Below are positions 1,436 to 35,690 of a DNA stretch of 35,690 nucleotides, piece by piece (positions within the stretch are counted from its first letter, which is position 1; each line of letters starts with the position of its first letter). The notes beneath the pieces are model-generated. The model saw only the letters and a program-made list of their open reading frames with translations, was not told where the DNA came from and did not search any database. The DNA is from a virus. A program made the translations under genes and the position numbers. The stretch covers positions 1 to 35,690 of IMG/VR virus record IMGVR_UViG_3300045971_000156, one strand, 5' to 3'.

Positions 1436-1612
1436 TCCTGTTTATCTTGCTGCGATGGACGTATCTTACATCAAATATCGGATAAACGATACGGATAGGC
1501 GAATATGTTTTAATCGGAATCACGCTACCGATTGAAAAAAGCTAAAACGTCTACGGGTTGACCCTAATCAACTGCTTGATTTCGGGGAATTGGTACAGTG
1601 TGGCGGGGGTCT
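1436..1612 (-). promoter_or_regulatory. Non-coding gap between the repressor gene and the leftward operon; candidate PL-like promoter/operator region
   Basis: A 177-bp gap in an otherwise gene-dense strand, at the same relative position as lambda PL. It contains GATA/CGGATA repeats (1481-1498), ATATCG (1475-1480) and CGAATATG (1500-1507), which resemble halves of the 1990-2002 palindrome. It also has an AATCGG-N10-CCGATT inverted repeat (1512-1533). Confidence 0.3.
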
Positions 1613-1945
1613 TTACGCCGCCTGGATGTTTCCTGTGTTGGCTGACTTTAGGCCGCGAACCATGTGCAAAACAACCTCTCTTTGTGCTGGTGACAGTTCA
1701 ACATAAAGACGCATTAATTCATTCGATCCCACTATCTCTCCCTTCGTACCGTACATGACTTCCTCTATGGAAACGTCCAGTTCTCGGCACAGGGATAGCA
1801 GAACAGTAGCGGAAAACTCCTTGTTCTTGCTTTCTATGTCTGACAGGGTGCTTTGCGTGATCCCACACGGCAGGGCCAATTCAGCCTGACGAATGATCCC
1901 GCGCTCTAGACGAAGCCGCCTGATTCTTTGTCCGATAGTTTCCAT
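1613..1945 (-). CDS. CI-like repressor, XRE-family HTH (110 aa), with no peptidase S24 domain
   Basis: IGQRIRRLRLERGIIRQAELALPCGITQSTLSDIESKNK is a classic HTH_3 pattern. The gene is divergent from a Cro-like gene across 71 bp. Confidence 0.85.
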   Translation of the reverse strand: METIGQRIRRLRLERGIIRQAELALPCGITQSTLSDIESKNKEFSATVLLSLCRELDVSIEEVMYGTKGEIVGSNELMRLYVELSPAQREVVLHMVRGLKSANTGNIQAA

Positions 1946-2016
1946 AAATCACATTGTGCTTATGCTTTGATAAATTAAATCAGACATAACATATCGAATA
2001 TGAGATACTCTGCGGC
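1946..2016. promoter_or_regulatory. Divergent immunity switch region (PRM/PR analogue) with palindromes
   Basis: A perfect 5-3-5 palindrome CATAT-CGA-ATATG lies at 1990-2002. CACA-T-TGTG lies at 1950-1958 and TGAT-N7-ATCA at 1968-1982. A TTGATA -35-like hexamer lies at 1967-1972. No Shine-Dalgarno precedes the repressor ATG. Confidence 0.5.
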
Positions 2017-2223
2017 ATGACTAAAGCAGACGCAATCAAACATTTCGGAACCCAAGTGAGGCTAGGTGAAGCCTTGGGATGTAAGCAACACACTATTTCA
2101 GGGTGGGGCGAATACCCACCTGACAGCAGACAACTCCAAATCGAACGGGTCACCCTCGGAGCACTGAAGGCAGAACCCGAGTGCATGGACCGTTTGCTTG
2201 GATTTGTGAAGGACGCGCAATGA
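2017..2223 (+). CDS. Cro/YdaS-like small HTH regulator (68 aa)
   Basis: AIKHFGTQVRLGEALGCKQHTISGWGEYPPDSRQLQIERVTLGAL matches the Cro/YdaS-type pattern (HTH followed by IE-x-x-T-x-G-x-L). The gene is divergent from the repressor. Confidence 0.75.
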   Translation: MTKADAIKHFGTQVRLGEALGCKQHTISGWGEYPPDSRQLQIERVTLGALKAEPECMDRLLGFVKDAQ

Positions 2224-2960
2224 CATTCGCAAATCTTGCGCTTGAACTTGATTTTTCACAGTGCGATAGCGCACACAAAGCAGAGAAATCAATGAAAAAC
2301 GAAATCATTGAATCGTGTAAACCGATCTTCTTTGACATTAACAGCCTTCCACTATCAGACAAGGTTGATTGCATCAACGCGCTGCGTGAAATGCTCCATG
2401 TGCTTTCTCCATTCAACTCAGAGCCTGTTGACTTTGTGAAGTGGGTAAGCAATTCACTGGTCCACGCAAACGACTACAACCCGAACAGCGTTGCACCGCC
2501 TGAAATGGAATTGCTCAGGCATTCAATCGCGGCTGACGGGTACACACAGCCCATTGTTTCCATGCCTGATGCAGACACGTATGAGGTCATAGACGGGTTT
2601 CACCGACATAGGGTAGGTAAGGAGTGCCAAGACATTCAATCGCGTGTCCACGGCTATTTGCCATTGGTACAAATTCGCTCTACTCAACAAGACAAAACAG
2701 ACCGTATGGCATCAACCATTCGGCATAACAGGGCAAGGGGAGAGCACCGGGTTGAATCAATGGCTGAAATCGTTGTTGAACTGAAACGCAGGTTTTGGAA
2801 TGATGAAAAGATCGCCAAAGAGTTAGGAATGGAGCCTGACGAGGTTTTACGGTTGACTCAAGTTACCGGGTTAGCTGGATTGTTCCAAGACCGTGAATTC
2901 TCCGAAGCATGGGAAGCAGACACATTCCAAGAAACCGAGGGTGACGATGACCTTAATTGA
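2220..2960 (+). CDS. ibrB: ParB/sulfiredoxin-fold protein, IbrB-like (246 aa)
   Basis: The ATG at 2220 overlaps the cro stop as ATGA; the track start at 2181 is a GTG. YNPNSVAPPEMELLRHSIAADGYTQPIV...YEVIDGFHRHRV is the ParB N-terminal-domain DG-x-HR signature as seen in IbrB/DndB-type proteins. Confidence 0.85.
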   Translation: MTFANLALELDFSQCDSAHKAEKSMKNEIIESCKPIFFDINSLPLSDKVDCINALREMLHVLSPFNSEPVDFVKWVSNSLVHANDYNPNSVAPPEMELLRHSIAADGYTQPIVSMPDADTYEVIDGFHRHRVGKECQDIQSRVHGYLPLVQIRSTQQDKTDRMASTIRHNRARGEHRVESMAEIVVELKRRFWNDEKIAKELGMEPDEVLRLTQVTGLAGLFQDREFSEAWEADTFQETEGDDDLN

Positions 2961-3333
2961 TGATCGTCTGCCAAGCGAAGGTGAGATTTGGCATCCGTGG
3001 ACTGACCTTGAAGAATCTGACAGCGCCATGTGGGGAAACGTCAGCAACAGGAAAACATGGCTAGACATTGCCATTCTGTTCACTGGTAATGCTGATCTAT
3101 ACGGTGAGTGGATGCTGAATGTGTTAGGCGAGTGGAAAAAGTCGTGTGAGCACAACCTTAGCAAATCTGGCGACAAAAGGGCTTGGATTGGTCACGCTGC
3201 CGTGGCATTAGCAATTAACTGCCCTGAAGATATTGTGCGTGAAGCATGGGGCCATTTGTCTCAAGAACAGCAAGACGCTGCCAACAAGAAAGCCTCAGAA
3301 GCAATAGAAAAGTGGAGGCTAACAAATGCCTAA
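2947..3333 (+). CDS. Hypothetical protein (128 aa) sandwiched between the ParB-like and PAPS-reductase-like genes
   Basis: The ATG at 2947 (MTLIDDRLPSEGEIWHPW...) is internal to track ORF 2893..3333. It overlaps the upstream gene by 14 nt and the downstream gene by 8 nt. It is Trp-rich and contains CEHNLS and WIGHAA blocks. I recognise no family. Confidence 0.6.
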   Translation: MTLIDDRLPSEGEIWHPWTDLEESDSAMWGNVSNRKTWLDIAILFTGNADLYGEWMLNVLGEWKKSCEHNLSKSGDKRAWIGHAAVALAINCPEDIVREAWGHLSQEQQDAANKKASEAIEKWRLTNA

Positions 3334-4546
3334 GCGCGGTCTAGGAATGGACGTTCTAACTGCTGCACAGCAGCGCATTGAATGGACATTTGACAACTTC
3401 CCAAAAATCTATTGTTCTTTCAGTGCTGGAAAAGACAGCGGGGTAATGGTTCATTTGGTCTGCCAGGAAGCCCGTAAACGTGGCCGCAAGATAGGATTGT
3501 TCTTGCTGGATTGGGAAGCGCAATTTACCGCAACGATTGATTTTGCCAGACAGATATTTACTGAATACGCAGATTGCACCGAGCCTTACTGGTGCGCTGT
3601 ACCAATGAAAACATGGAATGCAGTTTCAAATTTTCAGCCTGAATGGACTGCCTGGGACGAATCAAAGAAAAACCTTTGGGTTCGTCAAAAGGAAACGATC
3701 AGCATCAAAGACACAAAAGAGTTTCCGTTTTGGTACGAAGGAATCATGTTTGAGGAGTTTGTACCTACTTTTGGTCAATGGTATGCAAAAGGAGAACTGT
3801 GTGCGGCATTTGTCGGCATTAGAGCACAGGAGAGTTTGAATCGGTTTAGGACGTTGGCTAGAGACAAGCCAATGTATCAAGGAAAACCATTCACGACCAA
3901 CGTGGTTGAAAACGTCTGGAATGTTTACCCAATCTATGACTGGAAAACTGAGGACATTTGGACATATCACGGAAAGACAGGACTTGTATACAACAAGCTG
4001 TATGACCGAATGCACCAAGCCGGGTTAACGCTGCATCAAATGCGTATCTGTGAGCCTTTTGGTGACGAGTCTAGAAAAGGCTTGTGGCTGTACCAAGTGA
4101 TTGAGCCTACGGTATGGGCTAAGTTAGTTCTACGGGTTAACGGAGCCAATACAGGAAAGATTTACAGCAATGAGCGCGGTAACGTCATGGGTAATCATGC
4201 AATATCTCTACCTGAAGGTCATACCTGGGAGAGTTTCGCCAAATCATTATTAGAAAGCACCCCACCTAAAACAGCTTGTCATTACAAAAACAAGATTGCT
4301 GTTTACATCAAATGGTGGATGGCTAGAGGTTATCCAGATGGGATACCTGATGCTATTGATTTGAAAATAGAAAACGCTGGCAAAGCTCCAAGCTGGCGCA
4401 GGGTATGTAAGACATTACTCAAGAATGATTACTGGTGCAAGTACCTAGGCTTTAGCCCAACAAAAACAAGTGCTTATCAAAAGTACAACGACTTAATGGC
4501 TAAACGCAGAAAAGCATGGAATATTTTTTCGGAGGAGATTAAATGA
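3326..4546 (+). CDS. ibrA: PAPS-reductase-fold (PP-loop ATP pyrophosphatase) protein, IbrA-like with a C-terminal extension (406 aa)
   Basis: It has the PP-loop variant SFSAGKDSGVM and the FVGIRAQESLNRF block. The C-terminal NDYWCKYLGFSP block is typical of IbrA-type proteins. GGAGG lies 7 nt upstream of the ATG. Confidence 0.88.
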   Translation: MPKRGLGMDVLTAAQQRIEWTFDNFPKIYCSFSAGKDSGVMVHLVCQEARKRGRKIGLFLLDWEAQFTATIDFARQIFTEYADCTEPYWCAVPMKTWNAVSNFQPEWTAWDESKKNLWVRQKETISIKDTKEFPFWYEGIMFEEFVPTFGQWYAKGELCAAFVGIRAQESLNRFRTLARDKPMYQGKPFTTNVVENVWNVYPIYDWKTEDIWTYHGKTGLVYNKLYDRMHQAGLTLHQMRICEPFGDESRKGLWLYQVIEPTVWAKLVLRVNGANTGKIYSNERGNVMGNHAISLPEGHTWESFAKSLLESTPPKTACHYKNKIAVYIKWWMARGYPDGIPDAIDLKIENAGKAPSWRRVCKTLLKNDYWCKYLGFSPTKTSAYQKYNDLMAKRRKAWNIFSEEIK

Positions 4547-4740
4547 CACAAGCAGAACTAATCATCCAGCGCCTTAAAAAAGGCTGGACCAGCCCCTTAG
4601 ATGCGCTTTATAGCTGCGGAACTCTCAAGCTGGCTACTCGGGTAGGTGAACTTCGCCGGGACGGTTTTGAGATTGAAGACCGTTGGAAAGAGGAAAACGG
4701 AAAGCGGTTCAAAGAGTACAAGTTTGGGGAGGTGTCATAA
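4543..4740 (+). CDS. Small winged-helix DNA-binding protein (65 aa)
   Basis: TSPLDALYSCGTLKLATRVGELRRDGFEIEDRWKEENGKRFKEYKF matches a common phage/plasmid HTH family (L-x-L-x-x-R-I-x-E-L-R-x-x-G-x-x-I). The start overlaps the upstream stop as ATGA. Confidence 0.7.
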   Translation: MTQAELIIQRLKKGWTSPLDALYSCGTLKLATRVGELRRDGFEIEDRWKEENGKRFKEYKFGEVS

Positions 4741-5475
4741 ATGCGCGTCAAGAATTGGGAGAAGTTTCAACACTTCAAAGACCGTAGACCACCGTGGATC
4801 AAACTTTATCGTGATCTTTTGGATGATGTTGAGTGGCATGAGTTGTCTGGAGATGACTCAAAAACTCTCGTAATGATTTGGGTTATCGCAAGTGAAAACC
4901 TTGGTGAACTACCAGACATAAAGACACTGGCATTTAGGCTAAGAACAAATACGAAACAGCTTGAAAGTGCTGTGAAACGCCTTTCTCACTGGTTGATAAC
5001 AGAACGATATCAAGACGATATCAATGTGTCTCAAATTAATTCAGTAGCTGAAGTTAGTGATCACCAAGAGACAGAGAAAGAGACAGAGAAAGAGACAGAG
5101 AAAGAGACAGATACGCCTAACGGCGTGTCGTTGTCTGTTTGGCAAGATTTCAAATCCATTCGTAAAACCAAGAAGGCAGCACTTACCCAAACGGCAATCA
5201 ACAAAATCCGCTCCCAGGCTGACAAAGCGGGGGTAAGCCTACAGGCTGCATTGGAAACGTGTTGTGAGCGTGGGTGGGCCAGTTTTAACGCTGAATGGCT
5301 GCAAGAAAAGCAGAAAGCCTATACGCCACCGCAACCAAATCAAACCGTACCTAGCAAACCCGGCATTGACCCAACGCTGGCCCGGTTGATCCAGGAGCAA
5401 ACCAGCGGTGCGGTTAAGCCACCTAGCGCAGAAATGAAAGCAAGGCTGGCACAACTTCGAGGGGTGACAGTATGA
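4741..5475 (+). CDS. Putative replication initiator / replisome organiser (244 aa)
   Basis: The N-terminus NWEKFQHFKDRRPPWIKLYRDLLDD is typical of phage replication-organiser proteins. The C-terminal half (WQDFKSIRKTKKAALTQTAINKIRSQADKAGVSLQAALETCCERGWASF) resembles DnaT/O-like DNA-binding domains. Tandem repeats lie inside the gene. Confidence 0.6.
   Translation: MRVKNWEKFQHFKDRRPPWIKLYRDLLDDVEWHELSGDDSKTLVMIWVIASENLGELPDIKTLAFRLRTNTKQLESAVKRLSHWLITERYQDDINVSQINSVAEVSDHQETEKETEKETEKETDTPNGVSLSVWQDFKSIRKTKKAALTQTAINKIRSQADKAGVSLQAALETCCERGWASFNAEWLQEKQKAYTPPQPNQTVPSKPGIDPTLARLIQEQTSGAVKPPSAEMKARLAQLRGVTV
5068..5111 (+). repeat. 12-bp tandem repeat GAGACAGAGAAA x3.7 inside the replication gene (encodes ETEKETEKETEKET)
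   Basis: Read directly: gagacagagaaa at 5068, 5080 and 5092, then gagacaga at 5104. Confidence 0.9.
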
Positions 5476-5621
5476 CAAAAGAACTAGCCAACCAAATCCT
5501 GAACCTATGGAGATCAGGTGCAAGACACTACCAACAATCCATTATTGACCAATGCCTCGTTATCACTGGCGACATTACGGGATCGCTTAATCACTCACAT
5601 ATTGTGGATGAGGATGCATGA
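5472..5621 (+). CDS. Hypothetical small protein (49 aa)
   Basis: Manual translation gives MTKELANQILNLWRSGARHYQQSIIDQCLVITGDITGSLNHSHIVDEDA. ATGA overlaps occur at both ends (5472-5475 and 5618-5621). I prefer it over track ORF 5518..5754. Confidence 0.5.
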   Translation: MTKELANQILNLWRSGARHYQQSIIDQCLVITGDITGSLNHSHIVDEDA

Positions 5622-8041: not shown

Positions 8042-8063
8042 CCCTTTACCTTGACTGACAATA
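8042..8063 (+). promoter_or_regulatory. Late motif copy 1: CCCTTTACCttgaCTGACAATA
   Basis: One of five intergenic copies. GACAAT lies at 8057-8062, 33 nt before the ATG at 8095. Confidence 0.6.
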
Positions 8064-9915: not shown

Positions 9916-9937
9916 CCCTTTACCTCCTTGGACAATC
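9916..9937 (+). promoter_or_regulatory. Late motif copy 2: CCCTTTACCtcctTGGACAATC
   Basis: It begins the base after the terL stop codon. GACAAT lies at 9931-9936, 24 nt before the portal ATG. Confidence 0.5.
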
Positions 9938-16392: not shown

Positions 16393-16414
16393 CCCTTTAC
16401 CACTGCTGACAATA
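16393..16414 (+). promoter_or_regulatory. Late motif copy 3: CCCTTTACCactgCTGACAATA
   Basis: GACAAT lies at 16408-16413. The A of the ATG at 16420 is the 7th nt after the hexamer. Confidence 0.55.
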
Positions 16415-18841: not shown

Positions 18842-18863
18842 CCCTTTACCGTTGCTGACAATA
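18842..18863 (+). promoter_or_regulatory. Late motif copy 4: CCCTTTACCgttgCTGACAATA
   Basis: It lies 24 nt after the terminator. GACAAT is at 18857-18862, 27 nt before the ATG at 18889, which has a TAGGAG RBS. Confidence 0.65.
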
Positions 18864-26829: not shown

Positions 26830-26851
26830 CCCTTTACCCACAAAGACAATA
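26830..26851 (+). promoter_or_regulatory. Late motif copy 5: CCCTTTACCcacaAAGACAATA
   Basis: GACAAT lies at 26845-26850, 20 nt before the tail-fibre ATG at 26870. Confidence 0.55.
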
Positions 26852-33440: not shown

Positions 33441-33547
33441 ATCACACTCCCAATCACAGTTACAAGATAAGCCACTACTGCAAGCGCGATACAAACTATG
33501 AAGATCACGGTGGCGATACCGAGATCGTCTATTCCGTCGTCGTTCAT
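33437..33547 (-). CDS. Hypothetical single-TM micro-protein (36 aa)
   Basis: Manual translation gives MNDDGIDDLGIATVIFIVCIALAVVAYLVTVIGSVI. It is ATGA-coupled at both ends. Confidence 0.4.
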   Translation of the reverse strand: MNDDGIDDLGIATVIFIVCIALAVVAYLVTVIGSVI

Positions 33548-33969
33548 TGTCTGCACTCAATTTCTACACACACGATGCGTAGTAGGTCGGCTTGGATTTC
33601 CCTTGCTGCGGCCCTTGCTGCGCCCCATGCTACGTCCCATGCTGCGGCCCCTGCTGCGGCTAATTCGGAATCAGTAGCATTTCCGTTAGCATGACGCTCT
33701 GCAACGTCAATGGCTGCAATACTTCGTGGGTCGTTCATTAAGTGCCGCACACTGCGAGCGCAATCCACAGCGTATAGGCGTATCTCACTCTGAAAGCCAT
33801 CTACGGAGCGTAGGCACCACAGCGCATCGTCTAGGCTGTTGCTGTCGAGGATAGTTGTGATCGCCAGTGGCTCATCGTCAGCTTTTGTTTTACCTAGATT
33901 GGACAATAGCTTTTTCCAGCCCGACTCACATGGTGAACAGGCTCGGATGCGGTTGAGTGTGGTTTTCAT
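33544..33969 (-). CDS. Hypothetical protein (141 aa) with an Ala-rich helical C-terminus
   Basis: The ATG at 33967-33969 (MKTTLNRIRACSPCESGWKKLL...) is ATGA-coupled. The track start at 33981 is a GTG. Confidence 0.6.
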   Translation of the reverse strand: MKTTLNRIRACSPCESGWKKLLSNLGKTKADDEPLAITTILDSNSLDDALWCLRSVDGFQSEIRLYAVDCARSVRHLMNDPRSIAAIDVAERHANGNATDSELAAAGAAAWDVAWGAARAAAREIQADLLRIVCVEIECRQ

Positions 33970-34115
33970 AGCATCACCCACATAGCAATTCCTACCGCAA
34001 TCATTCCAAGCACTGCGCCGAATAGTTGGTTGCTTAGTCGGCGGTCAATTTCAAGTTCGCAGTCTTCTGCTGACTTTGTGGGGCGCAGGGTGCCTTTGGT
34101 GTACGGTGCAGTCAT
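33966..34115 (-). CDS. Hypothetical small protein with a C-terminal TM helix (49 aa; alternative start 34130)
   Basis: Manual translation gives MTAPYTKGTLRPTKSAEDCELEIDRRLSNQLFGAVLGMIAVGIAMWVML. It is ATGA-coupled at both ends. Confidence 0.45.
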   Translation of the reverse strand: MTAPYTKGTLRPTKSAEDCELEIDRRLSNQLFGAVLGMIAVGIAMWVML

Positions 34116-35415: not shown

Positions 35416-35690
35416 TTAGTTAGTTGTTAGGTTTTCCAAGGCAACAGACTCGCCTTGTTTCTTGATTGCGCTGCGGACATTGCTAGGCAACAGCTTCCAG
35501 AGGGCAACTTTCTCGTCACCGTCAACGATGCCTGAGTATTCTTCCCAAGCTCCGAGAATGTCGTTAGCACTGAACCGTTCTTTAACCGCCTCAGAAACGT
35601 CCACAATCACGCTCATGCGCTTTTGGCTAACGTCTGGTGTGCCAGTAGGGGTATGGATGATCTTTGGCTCTACGGGCTTGCTAGAGTCGA
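35416..35690 (-). CDS. erf: ERF-family recombinase, 3' part (same gene as 1..485)
   Basis: Track ORF 35416..35616 remains open upstream to the window end (...DSSKPVEPKIIHTPTGTPDVSQKRMSVIVDV...). It joins in frame, through the 127-bp repeat, to 128..485. Confidence 0.85.
   Translation of the reverse strand, partial: DSSKPVEPKIIHTPTGTPDVSQKRMSVIVDVSEAVKERFSANDILGAWEEYSGIVDGDEKVALWKLLPSNVRSAIKKQGESVALENLTTN
35564..35690. repeat. Terminal direct repeat, right copy (identical to 1..127)
   Basis: Exact match on direct reading. Confidence 0.95.

Follow-up and report, generated by a model that had tools for sequence, protein, structure and literature searches.

Our analysis concerns three adjacent plus-strand genes at positions 2220-4546 of the viral genome IMGVR_UViG_3300045971_000156, whose full 35,690-nucleotide sequence we refer to as the window. 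In order, they encode an IbrB-type protein of the ParB/Srx fold, a 128-residue protein that we call Mid, and an IbrA-type PP-loop enzyme whose N-terminal domain falls in the 3′-phosphoadenosine-5′-phosphosulfate (PAPS) reductase family. We found this trio to be a conserved, co-inherited three-protein unit, with Mid obligatory in this type of module. The two outer genes belong to the known IbrB/IbrA family; as far as can be told, what is new is the obligatory third gene, the gene order, and the position in an early operon. This comparative result is firm, and the function we propose for the trio, a ParB-guided modification of phage DNA, is put forward as a hypothesis.

The evidence for the unit comes from 90 loci selected by the presence of Mid, comprising 80 loci from IMG/VR (of 214 confirmed), 7 contigs of metagenome-assembled genomes (MAGs) and 3 loci from cultured phages. 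An IbrB-like gene is present in 90/90 of these loci and an IbrA-like gene in 89/90, with the remaining locus stopping at a contig edge. The three genes are co-directional throughout, and their orders—ParB-Mid-PAPS (n = 51), PAPS-ParB-Mid (n = 32) and Mid-PAPS-ParB (n = 6)—are cyclic permutations of a single order. Identities of the three proteins to their counterparts in the window also co-vary (r = 0.75-0.91). When loci were instead selected through IbrA (67-79% identity), all four carried Mid between the ParB-like and IbrA genes, as an intervening open reading frame (ORF) of 111-133 residues recognized by the Mid hidden Markov model (HMM) at 1e-32 to 1e-59. The original prediction, made from the letters of the window, had described the trio as a three-component variant and proposed checking whether the middle gene is always linked to the pair; the linkage holds in both directions of selection and across several phyla.

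This arrangement differs from that of classical IbrAB loci, which consist of two genes in the order ibrA-ibrB (L091-L093, L098), as in coliphage PhiR5_2, S. thermophilus phage CHPC1230, Lactobacillus phage AQ113 and an island of E. coli ATCC 11775, and in which the Mid HMM detects no homologue (E > 1); in the window the order is IbrB-Mid-IbrA, with three genes. Mid is also much the rarer gene, with cultured phage records containing an IbrA-like gene in 167 cases and Mid in only 5. Matches to Mid number 214 in IMG/VR and 7 in 185,579 species genomes, every one of the latter a MAG contig, with 0 in 72,556 plasmids and, in E. coli genomes, only a weak DNA match to the two-gene ibrA. The hosts or bins involved nonetheless span a wide range, including Pseudomonas, Pseudoalteromonas, Mycobacterium, Polaromonas, Methylotenera, Planctomycetota, Chlamydiae and Nitrospirota-type MAGs, with the Mid proteins of Mycobacterium phages still ~50% identical to that of the window, and a similar ~50% separating a Mycobacterium phage from gammaproteobacterial phages. 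Such identity across such hosts is more easily reconciled with a universal substrate or partner than with a host-specific protein.

Mid itself (2947-3333) had been singled out as a tryptophan-rich protein of no recognizable family, a description that library searches bear out: it contains 9 tryptophans in 128 residues and has zero matches in Pfam, PHROGs, NCBIfam, PADLOC and PDB sequences. It nevertheless has 574 homologues in a 90%-clustered database, mostly 66-86% identical, and the family forms 654 clusters at 50% identity; with more than 570 homologues, the gene is well beyond a chance ORF. Conserved residues include M28-W29, W63, S66-C67, W80-x-G-H83-A-A, C92-P-E94, R98, W101, N113 and W123. 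An AlphaFold model built with a 40-sequence alignment is confidently predicted (mean predicted local distance difference test score, pLDDT, 91.9; predicted template-modelling score, pTM, 0.84) and all-alpha, with seven helices. Foldseek searches of this model against the PDB returned no neighbour (best E = 1.6, template-modelling score <0.35), and those against BFVD returned as their sole match the Mid homologue of Pseudoalteromonas phage XCL1123. Since so confident a model lacks a PDB neighbour, a DndE-like or other known fold for Mid was ruled out. We also rejected Mid as a paralogue of the DUF3440 domain, or of any other part of IbrA (hhalign probability 0.2%). Mid is an unnamed, near phage-restricted family with a predicted helical fold that has no known match.

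Two sequences from the Mid searches deserve separate mention. The top Mid "relative" in the representative library, a 3,017-residue protein (P0121), proved to be a tandem-repeat ORF whose score summed weak matches over 50 short stretches, and was discarded as an artefact. A 251-residue protein (P0213) combines a Mid homologue with a C-terminal region that is weakly GNAT-like (Acetyltransf_10, E = 1.3e-3, below the gathering score).

The third gene (3326-4546, 406 residues) had been described as a PP-loop enzyme with an SxGKDS motif and an IbrA-type C-terminal extension, and domain searches agree on both counts. PAPS_reduct (PF01507) matches residues 28-228 (9e-17, 62 bits vs. a cut-off of 22.5), DUF3440 (PF11922) matches from residue 233 on (9e-41, 140 bits vs. 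a cut-off of 25), PHROG 2302 matches at 6e-90, and the protein is 47% identical to and colinear with an annotated coliphage IbrA. Its PP-loop, SFSAGKDS, is invariant, and among 84 orthologues SFSxGKDS and about 60 further positions show conservation of 95% or more; residues 330-377 hold the C-terminal motif W..RGYPDGIPD...PSWRRVCKTLLKNDYWCKYLGFS. Judging from these similarities, gene 3 is an IbrA orthologue with an intact PP-loop nucleotide-binding site, and it belongs to a large family, in which we scored more than 7,900 IbrA-like clusters. In Foldseek searches with its AlphaFold model (pLDDT 75), the N-terminal half matched CysH, FAD synthase/FMN adenylyltransferase and CysD at 1e-8 to 1e-4, with weaker matches including the tRNA thiolases NcsA and TtuA, while the DUF3440 half had no structural match. 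A single cysteine, C371 in the C-terminal tail (NDYWCK), is 99% conserved in the 84 orthologues, with other cysteine columns at 68% or below. This lone conserved cysteine makes iron-sulfur (Fe-S) sulfur insertion of the DndC/TtuA type unlikely and leaves room for a step that uses a single thiol.

The first gene (2220-2960, 246 residues) was likewise correctly assigned by its DG-x-HR motif to the ParB fold. The motif reads DGFHR (residues 125-129) and is at least 95% conserved among 88 orthologues, and the protein matches PHROG 2159 ("ParB-like") at 1e-68; a Pfam ParB_N match (1e-4) is below the gathering score. Over 183 residues it is 50% identical to the annotated IbrB of E. coli phage PhiR5_2 (BLASTP, E = 1e-65), an alignment by which we identify gene 1 as an IbrB orthologue. 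The ParB N-domain corresponds to approximately residues 69-135, with motifs NDYNPN, DGFHR and TIRHNRARGxH, and a C-terminal segment (IAKELGMEPDEVLRL) appears, by its residue pattern, to be helix-turn-helix (HTH)-like. In looking for a parS-like site for this protein, we found no candidate that is both repeated in the window and shared with related loci.

The sole strong repeated motif in the window is CCTTTACC-N6-GACAAT, which occurs in five exact plus-strand copies (8043-8062, 9917-9936, 16394-16413, 18843-18862 and 26831-26850) where 0.01 would be expected by chance, and no shuffled sequence yielded as many as five. At least two copies, at 9917 (between the large terminase TerL and portal genes) and at 26831, fall in intergenic gaps of the late region, counting ORFs of at least 110 residues. 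We rejected it as an IbrB site, as it lies in the late region, is non-palindromic and does not occur in any of the 97 related loci; a role as a late promoter or a regulator site is possible.

Domain fusions offer an indication of how Mid and IbrA might interact. In three proteins (P0132, P0166 and P0167), Mid carries a C-terminal extension of ~70 residues homologous to the end of DUF3440 and corresponding to residues 316-386 of the IbrA in the window (W..RGYPDGIPD...PSWRR..LLKND...LGFS). The similarity is seen by BLASTP (2e-12 for P0132, 8e-9 for P0166) as well as by the Pfam DUF3440 model (2e-5), and at the P0166 locus the adjacent IbrA retains its own copy of the C-terminal motif. We infer from this homology that the DUF3440-tail extension may be a docking element common to Mid and IbrA, and hence that the two proteins probably associate physically.

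A further domain marks one of the subtypes, in that an Ectoine_synth cupin (PF06339, 1e-32 to 1e-35) was found in 31 loci, essentially the entire PAPS-ParB-Mid subtype. The cupin is either fused to the N-terminus of the ParB-like protein or encoded just upstream, for example at 2736-3632 in Mycobacterium phage Gaia (L002) and at 3069-3458 in L001. That the module takes in a second enzyme domain points to a catalytic pathway. Some loci also contain an extra small ORF of the gp105 family, located between the ParB-like gene and Mid in Gaia, and between the PAPS and cupin genes in L075 and L082. A census of 126 flanking ORFs across the loci returned mostly primosomal, replication-initiation, helicase and RecE/exonuclease families.

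In the window, the trio lies directly 3′ of cro and 5′ of a replication O-like gene, in an arrangement that would have it translated as part of a chain. We reproduced the three ORFs on the plus strand with overlaps of 14 nucleotides between the IbrB gene and Mid and 8 nucleotides between Mid and the IbrA gene. The cro stop and the IbrB start share an ATGA (a 4-nucleotide overlap), as do the IbrA stop and the start of a small winged-HTH gene, which itself abuts the O-like gene. With overlaps at every junction, five genes are chained: cro, IbrB, Mid, IbrA and winged-HTH. A GAGG/GGAGG Shine-Dalgarno-like site precedes each start codon, and no terminator-like site was found on the plus strand within the block. 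The predicted placement of the trio as early, co-translated genes following cro is borne out by all of these features, and from this layout the trio is an early-expressed, co-translated unit, probably made together with the replication genes at the onset of lytic growth.

Among known systems, the nearest is E. coli IbrA/IbrB itself (the ECOR-9 island, and prophage or coliphage copies such as that in PhiR5_2), along with YbdN/YbdM of K-12, which share the PAPS_reduct plus DUF3440 architecture and an IbrB-type partner, with genes that are adjacent and co-directional here as there. Beyond the difference in gene number and order, classical IbrAB often occupies a moron-like position after the lysis genes, or else a chromosomal island, whereas here the genes stand at the head of the early operon. 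Our literature searches on the biochemistry of IbrAB, YbdNM and DUF3440 returned annotations only.

The parallel that had been drawn with DndB/DndC of DNA phosphorothioation, a comparison that extends to SspB/SspD and BrxP, stands only at the level of folds. What is shared is the pairing of a ParB/Srx-fold protein bearing a DGxHR-type motif with a PP-loop enzyme of the PAPS-reductase family. Beyond this pairing the systems part ways, as IbrA scores only 19 bits against the DndC model TIGR03183 (cut-off 290.4) and matches the PADLOC DndC model at 4.5e-6 over ~95 residues, the ParB-like protein is not matched by DndB models, IbrA lacks the conserved cysteine set for an Fe-S cluster, and DUF3440 and Mid are absent from Dnd. 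Nor were DndA/IscS, DndD/SspC or DndE detected among the trio and winged-HTH protein (PADLOC) or among the seven genes from cI to RepO (Pfam).

The ParB of ParABS partition systems differs too, with the IbrB-like protein scoring 21.7 against TIGR00180 (cut-off 58.45) and reading DGFHRHR where ParB has a GERRxR box II with its catalytic glutamate, which is replaced here by phenylalanine. A ParABS system would also be expected to have ParA adjacent and to belong to a plasmid-type replicon, whereas the neighbours here are cro and Mid, in a phage that encodes an integrase. Closer in function may be DpdB, which acts with DpdA in 7-deazaguanine modification, and the phage ParB activators of thymine dioxygenases (5mYOX), where a ParB-fold partner is required on double-stranded DNA (PMC13229309, PMC12839542, PMC10164549). 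These too are orphan ParB-fold genes beside an enzyme, and they offer the closest functional parallel for IbrB. The enzymes differ, DpdA being a TGT-like transglycosylase and 5mYOX an Fe/2-oxoglutarate dioxygenase where the module has a PP-loop enzyme, and a Mid-like third protein is found in neither. Lambda NinC, a member of the PAPS reductase family encoded in the nin region, is listed as non-essential (PMC10695390). Like the IbrA gene here, it is a gene of the PAPS_reduct family with no assigned function, and it lies among the early genes (replication/nin) of a lambdoid phage. We take it to be a stand-alone gene without DUF3440, a ParB-like partner or Mid.

The original prediction had named nucleic-acid modification, regulation and anti-defence as candidate activities. 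Taken together, the comparative evidence leans toward an enzymatic, DNA-directed activity, given the cupin in one subtype, the replication neighbours and the strictly conserved PP-loop. Specifically, we propose that the trio is a three-component IbrB/IbrA variant carrying out ParB-guided, ATP-dependent (adenylating) modification of phage DNA, a reading to which we assign a probability of roughly 0.4, and which draws on the chemistry of the PP-loop superfamily, the existence of ParB-like helpers of DNA-modifying enzymes, and the replication-gene context. Adenylation is common to the relatives of IbrA, including the ATP sulfurylase CysD, FMN adenylyltransferase, DndC/SspD and TilS-like PP-loop enzymes. 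In this scheme, IbrB would bind phage DNA through its ParB fold and HTH, probably with a nucleoside triphosphate (NTP) as for other ParB-fold proteins, and would deliver IbrA to that DNA or activate it there. IbrA, using ATP, would adenylate a nucleic-acid oxygen, either of a phosphate or of a base carbonyl, and the adenylate would be resolved into a covalent modification on newly replicated phage DNA. Mid would be a stoichiometric accessory subunit that docks on the DUF3440 tail of IbrA, on IbrB, or on both, and could serve as adaptor, specificity factor or activity gate. The pay-off would be that phage DNA is protected or marked during lytic growth.

A bolder form of this proposal, which we hold to be improbable though worth stating, is that the trio and its cupin-bearing sibling install a novel covalent DNA modification, for example by converting a base carbonyl to an amidine-type or differently substituted base in the manner of tRNA lysidine, with an NTP-dependent ParB-fold clamp guiding the enzyme along phage DNA as it replicates and Mid as a new-fold subunit for specificity or gating.

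Several points weigh against DNA modification. That DNA is the substrate, and that a modification exists, is suggested by analogy with other systems. The genetics of Sandt, Hopper and Hill from 2002 reportedly has IbrAB activating the expression of prophage eib genes, on its face a regulatory effect. A homologous pair, ybdNM, is present in E. coli K-12, a strain in which no unusual DNA modification is known, though its ybdNM operon is repressed. Since classical IbrAB pairs manage without Mid, Mid would be dispensable for the core chemistry. The IbrA model is of moderate quality, and its DUF3440 half has no match that indicates nucleic-acid binding. Finally, given the conservation of C371, a CysH-like thiol step may be involved.

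The most credible rival to DNA modification, though still an unlikely one, is that the trio is a regulatory module, in which IbrB acts as a DNA-binding ParB-fold switch or anti-silencer (compare VirB and KorB) that turns on phage genes, with IbrA and Mid tuning its activity by way of a nucleotide or small ligand. This would suit a position directly after cro, the slot that cII occupies in lambda, as well as the HTH-like segment that IbrB seems to have, the eib genetics just mentioned and the annotation of database records as "co-activator of prophage gene expression"; other ParB-fold transcription regulators exist. It leaves unexplained, however, both the strict conservation of the PP-loop catalytic site and the recruitment of the EctC-like cupin in 31 loci; other phages carry the module within replication modules without a cro/cI context, and no repeated candidate binding site is common to related loci. 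Somewhat less likely again is an anti-defence enzyme, with IbrA adenylylating or consuming a host nucleotide, cofactor or immune signal and IbrB and Mid as its regulators or scaffolds. The placement of the trio for the earliest possible expression favours it, as do the closest structural relatives of the IbrA N-domain (CysH, CysD and FMN adenylyltransferase/FAD synthase), all of which act on small nucleotides, and the origin of the EctC-like domain in a small-molecule enzyme family. Yet IbrA comes with a ParB-fold/HTH protein as its obligatory partner and with replication genes nearby, and matches to PADLOC or anti-defence models are limited to the weak DndC/BrxP similarity, with no target indicated. 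If IbrA instead acted on tRNA or rRNA, as TilS and TtcA do on tRNA, translation might be retuned for phage genes, an idea in line with the many PP-loop ATPases that modify tRNA bases via adenylated intermediates and with the weaker structural matches to NcsA and TtuA. We regard this as quite improbable: domain searches detected nothing that binds RNA, the phage is devoid of tRNA genes, IbrA is partnered by a ParB/HTH protein, and it does not have the Fe-S cysteines that NcsA and TtuA possess.

Two further explanations carry little weight with us. A prophage defence or superinfection exclusion system of the Dnd, BREX type 4 or PAPS-reductase-plus-ParBc kind, marking self DNA, would account for the weak PADLOC similarity (BrxP at 6e-5 in addition to DndC), and candidate defence clusters in a 2026 preprint do pair PAPS reductase with ParBc-domain proteins. 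But the genes sit in a lytic early operon behind cro, where they would be CI-repressed in the lysogen, no nuclease or restriction partner, cysteine desulfurase, DndD or DndE was detected, and Mid is absent from plasmids and nearly so from bacterial genomes; together with the shortfall against the DndC equivalog, this makes such a system very unlikely. The least probable of all is the reading that the usual database name invites, namely that a true PAPS reductase serves as an auxiliary metabolic gene raising host sulfur assimilation. The Pfam PAPS_reduct match agrees with that name, and one published phage genome paper interprets a PAPS_reduct gene in this way. The protein falls far under the CysH cut-offs, however (TIGR02057, 45.8 vs. 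254.2 bits; NF002537, 42.6 vs. 154), and C242 (RICEPF), at the position nearest to the catalytic C-terminal cysteine of CysH, is only 56% conserved. The ECGLH motif of that cysteine is not present, and a different cysteine, C371 in the C-terminal tail, is near-invariant. An obligatory linkage to a ParB-like protein and Mid, and the association with replication genes, likewise speak against it. Whatever its function, the module is not one of partition or of Dnd phosphorothioation, and very probably not one of PAPS reduction or sulfur assimilation.

IbrA/IbrB-type pairs are common in phages, prophages and enterobacterial chromosomes. To this family our results add a large phage-restricted subset with an obligatory third protein, whose family is unnamed and whose predicted fold has no match; another subset gains an ectoine-synthase-like domain, and fusions tie Mid to the C-terminus of IbrA. 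What had been a vague pair becomes a defined multi-subunit system with testable parts, and three culturable phages carry it: Pseudomonas phage Amjad_SA, whose gene order is that of the window, Pseudoalteromonas phage XCL1123, and Gaia of Mycobacterium. If DNA modification is indeed the function, it would bring new chemistry to the restriction-evasion repertoire of phages, and the auxiliary-metabolic-gene label now widely misapplied would be corrected; a novel covalent modification would moreover give the 20-year-old IbrAB/YbdNM family its first biochemical function.

The remaining features of the window are those of a complete temperate-phage genome. A direct repeat of 127 nucleotides is exact between positions 1-127 and 35564-35690, so the assembly is circular and complete at ~35,563 bp. 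The phage encodes an integrase (PHROG 1, 3e-49), a large terminase, a portal protein, NinG and an HNH endonuclease, and a megablast search with positions 1500-5500 gave zero matches in 50,697 phage records. Upstream of the trio, the first gene of the rightward early operon encodes a Cro of the P22_Cro family (2017-2223, plus strand; Pfam P22_Cro 2.7e-16) and is divergent from the gene for a CI-type HTH repressor (1613-1945, minus strand; Pfam HTH_3 9e-10, Phage_CI_repr 1.5e-4; PHROG 4 "transcriptional repressor" 7e-13), which would hold this operon, trio included, off in the lysogen. Downstream lie the winged-HTH gene (4543-4740, plus strand, 65 residues; Pfam HTH_39 1e-5) and the gene for a replication-initiation O-like or primosomal protein (4741-5475, plus strand; PHROG 678 6e-19, PHROG 6451 1e-11). 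We considered the winged-HTH protein as a fourth member of the module and rejected it, with a homologue in only 2/90 loci, upstream of ParB in one (L012) and downstream in the other (L041).

Two tandem repeats complete the description. At 5066-5111, inside the O-like gene, a 12-nucleotide unit (AAGAGACAGAGA) encoding (ETEK)n is repeated in tandem, perhaps as the iteron-like element of an origin that lies within the initiator gene, as in lambda O. A second, degenerate 12-nucleotide tandem repeat of ~5 units lies at 33599-33658, inside a minus-strand ORF (33544-33981).

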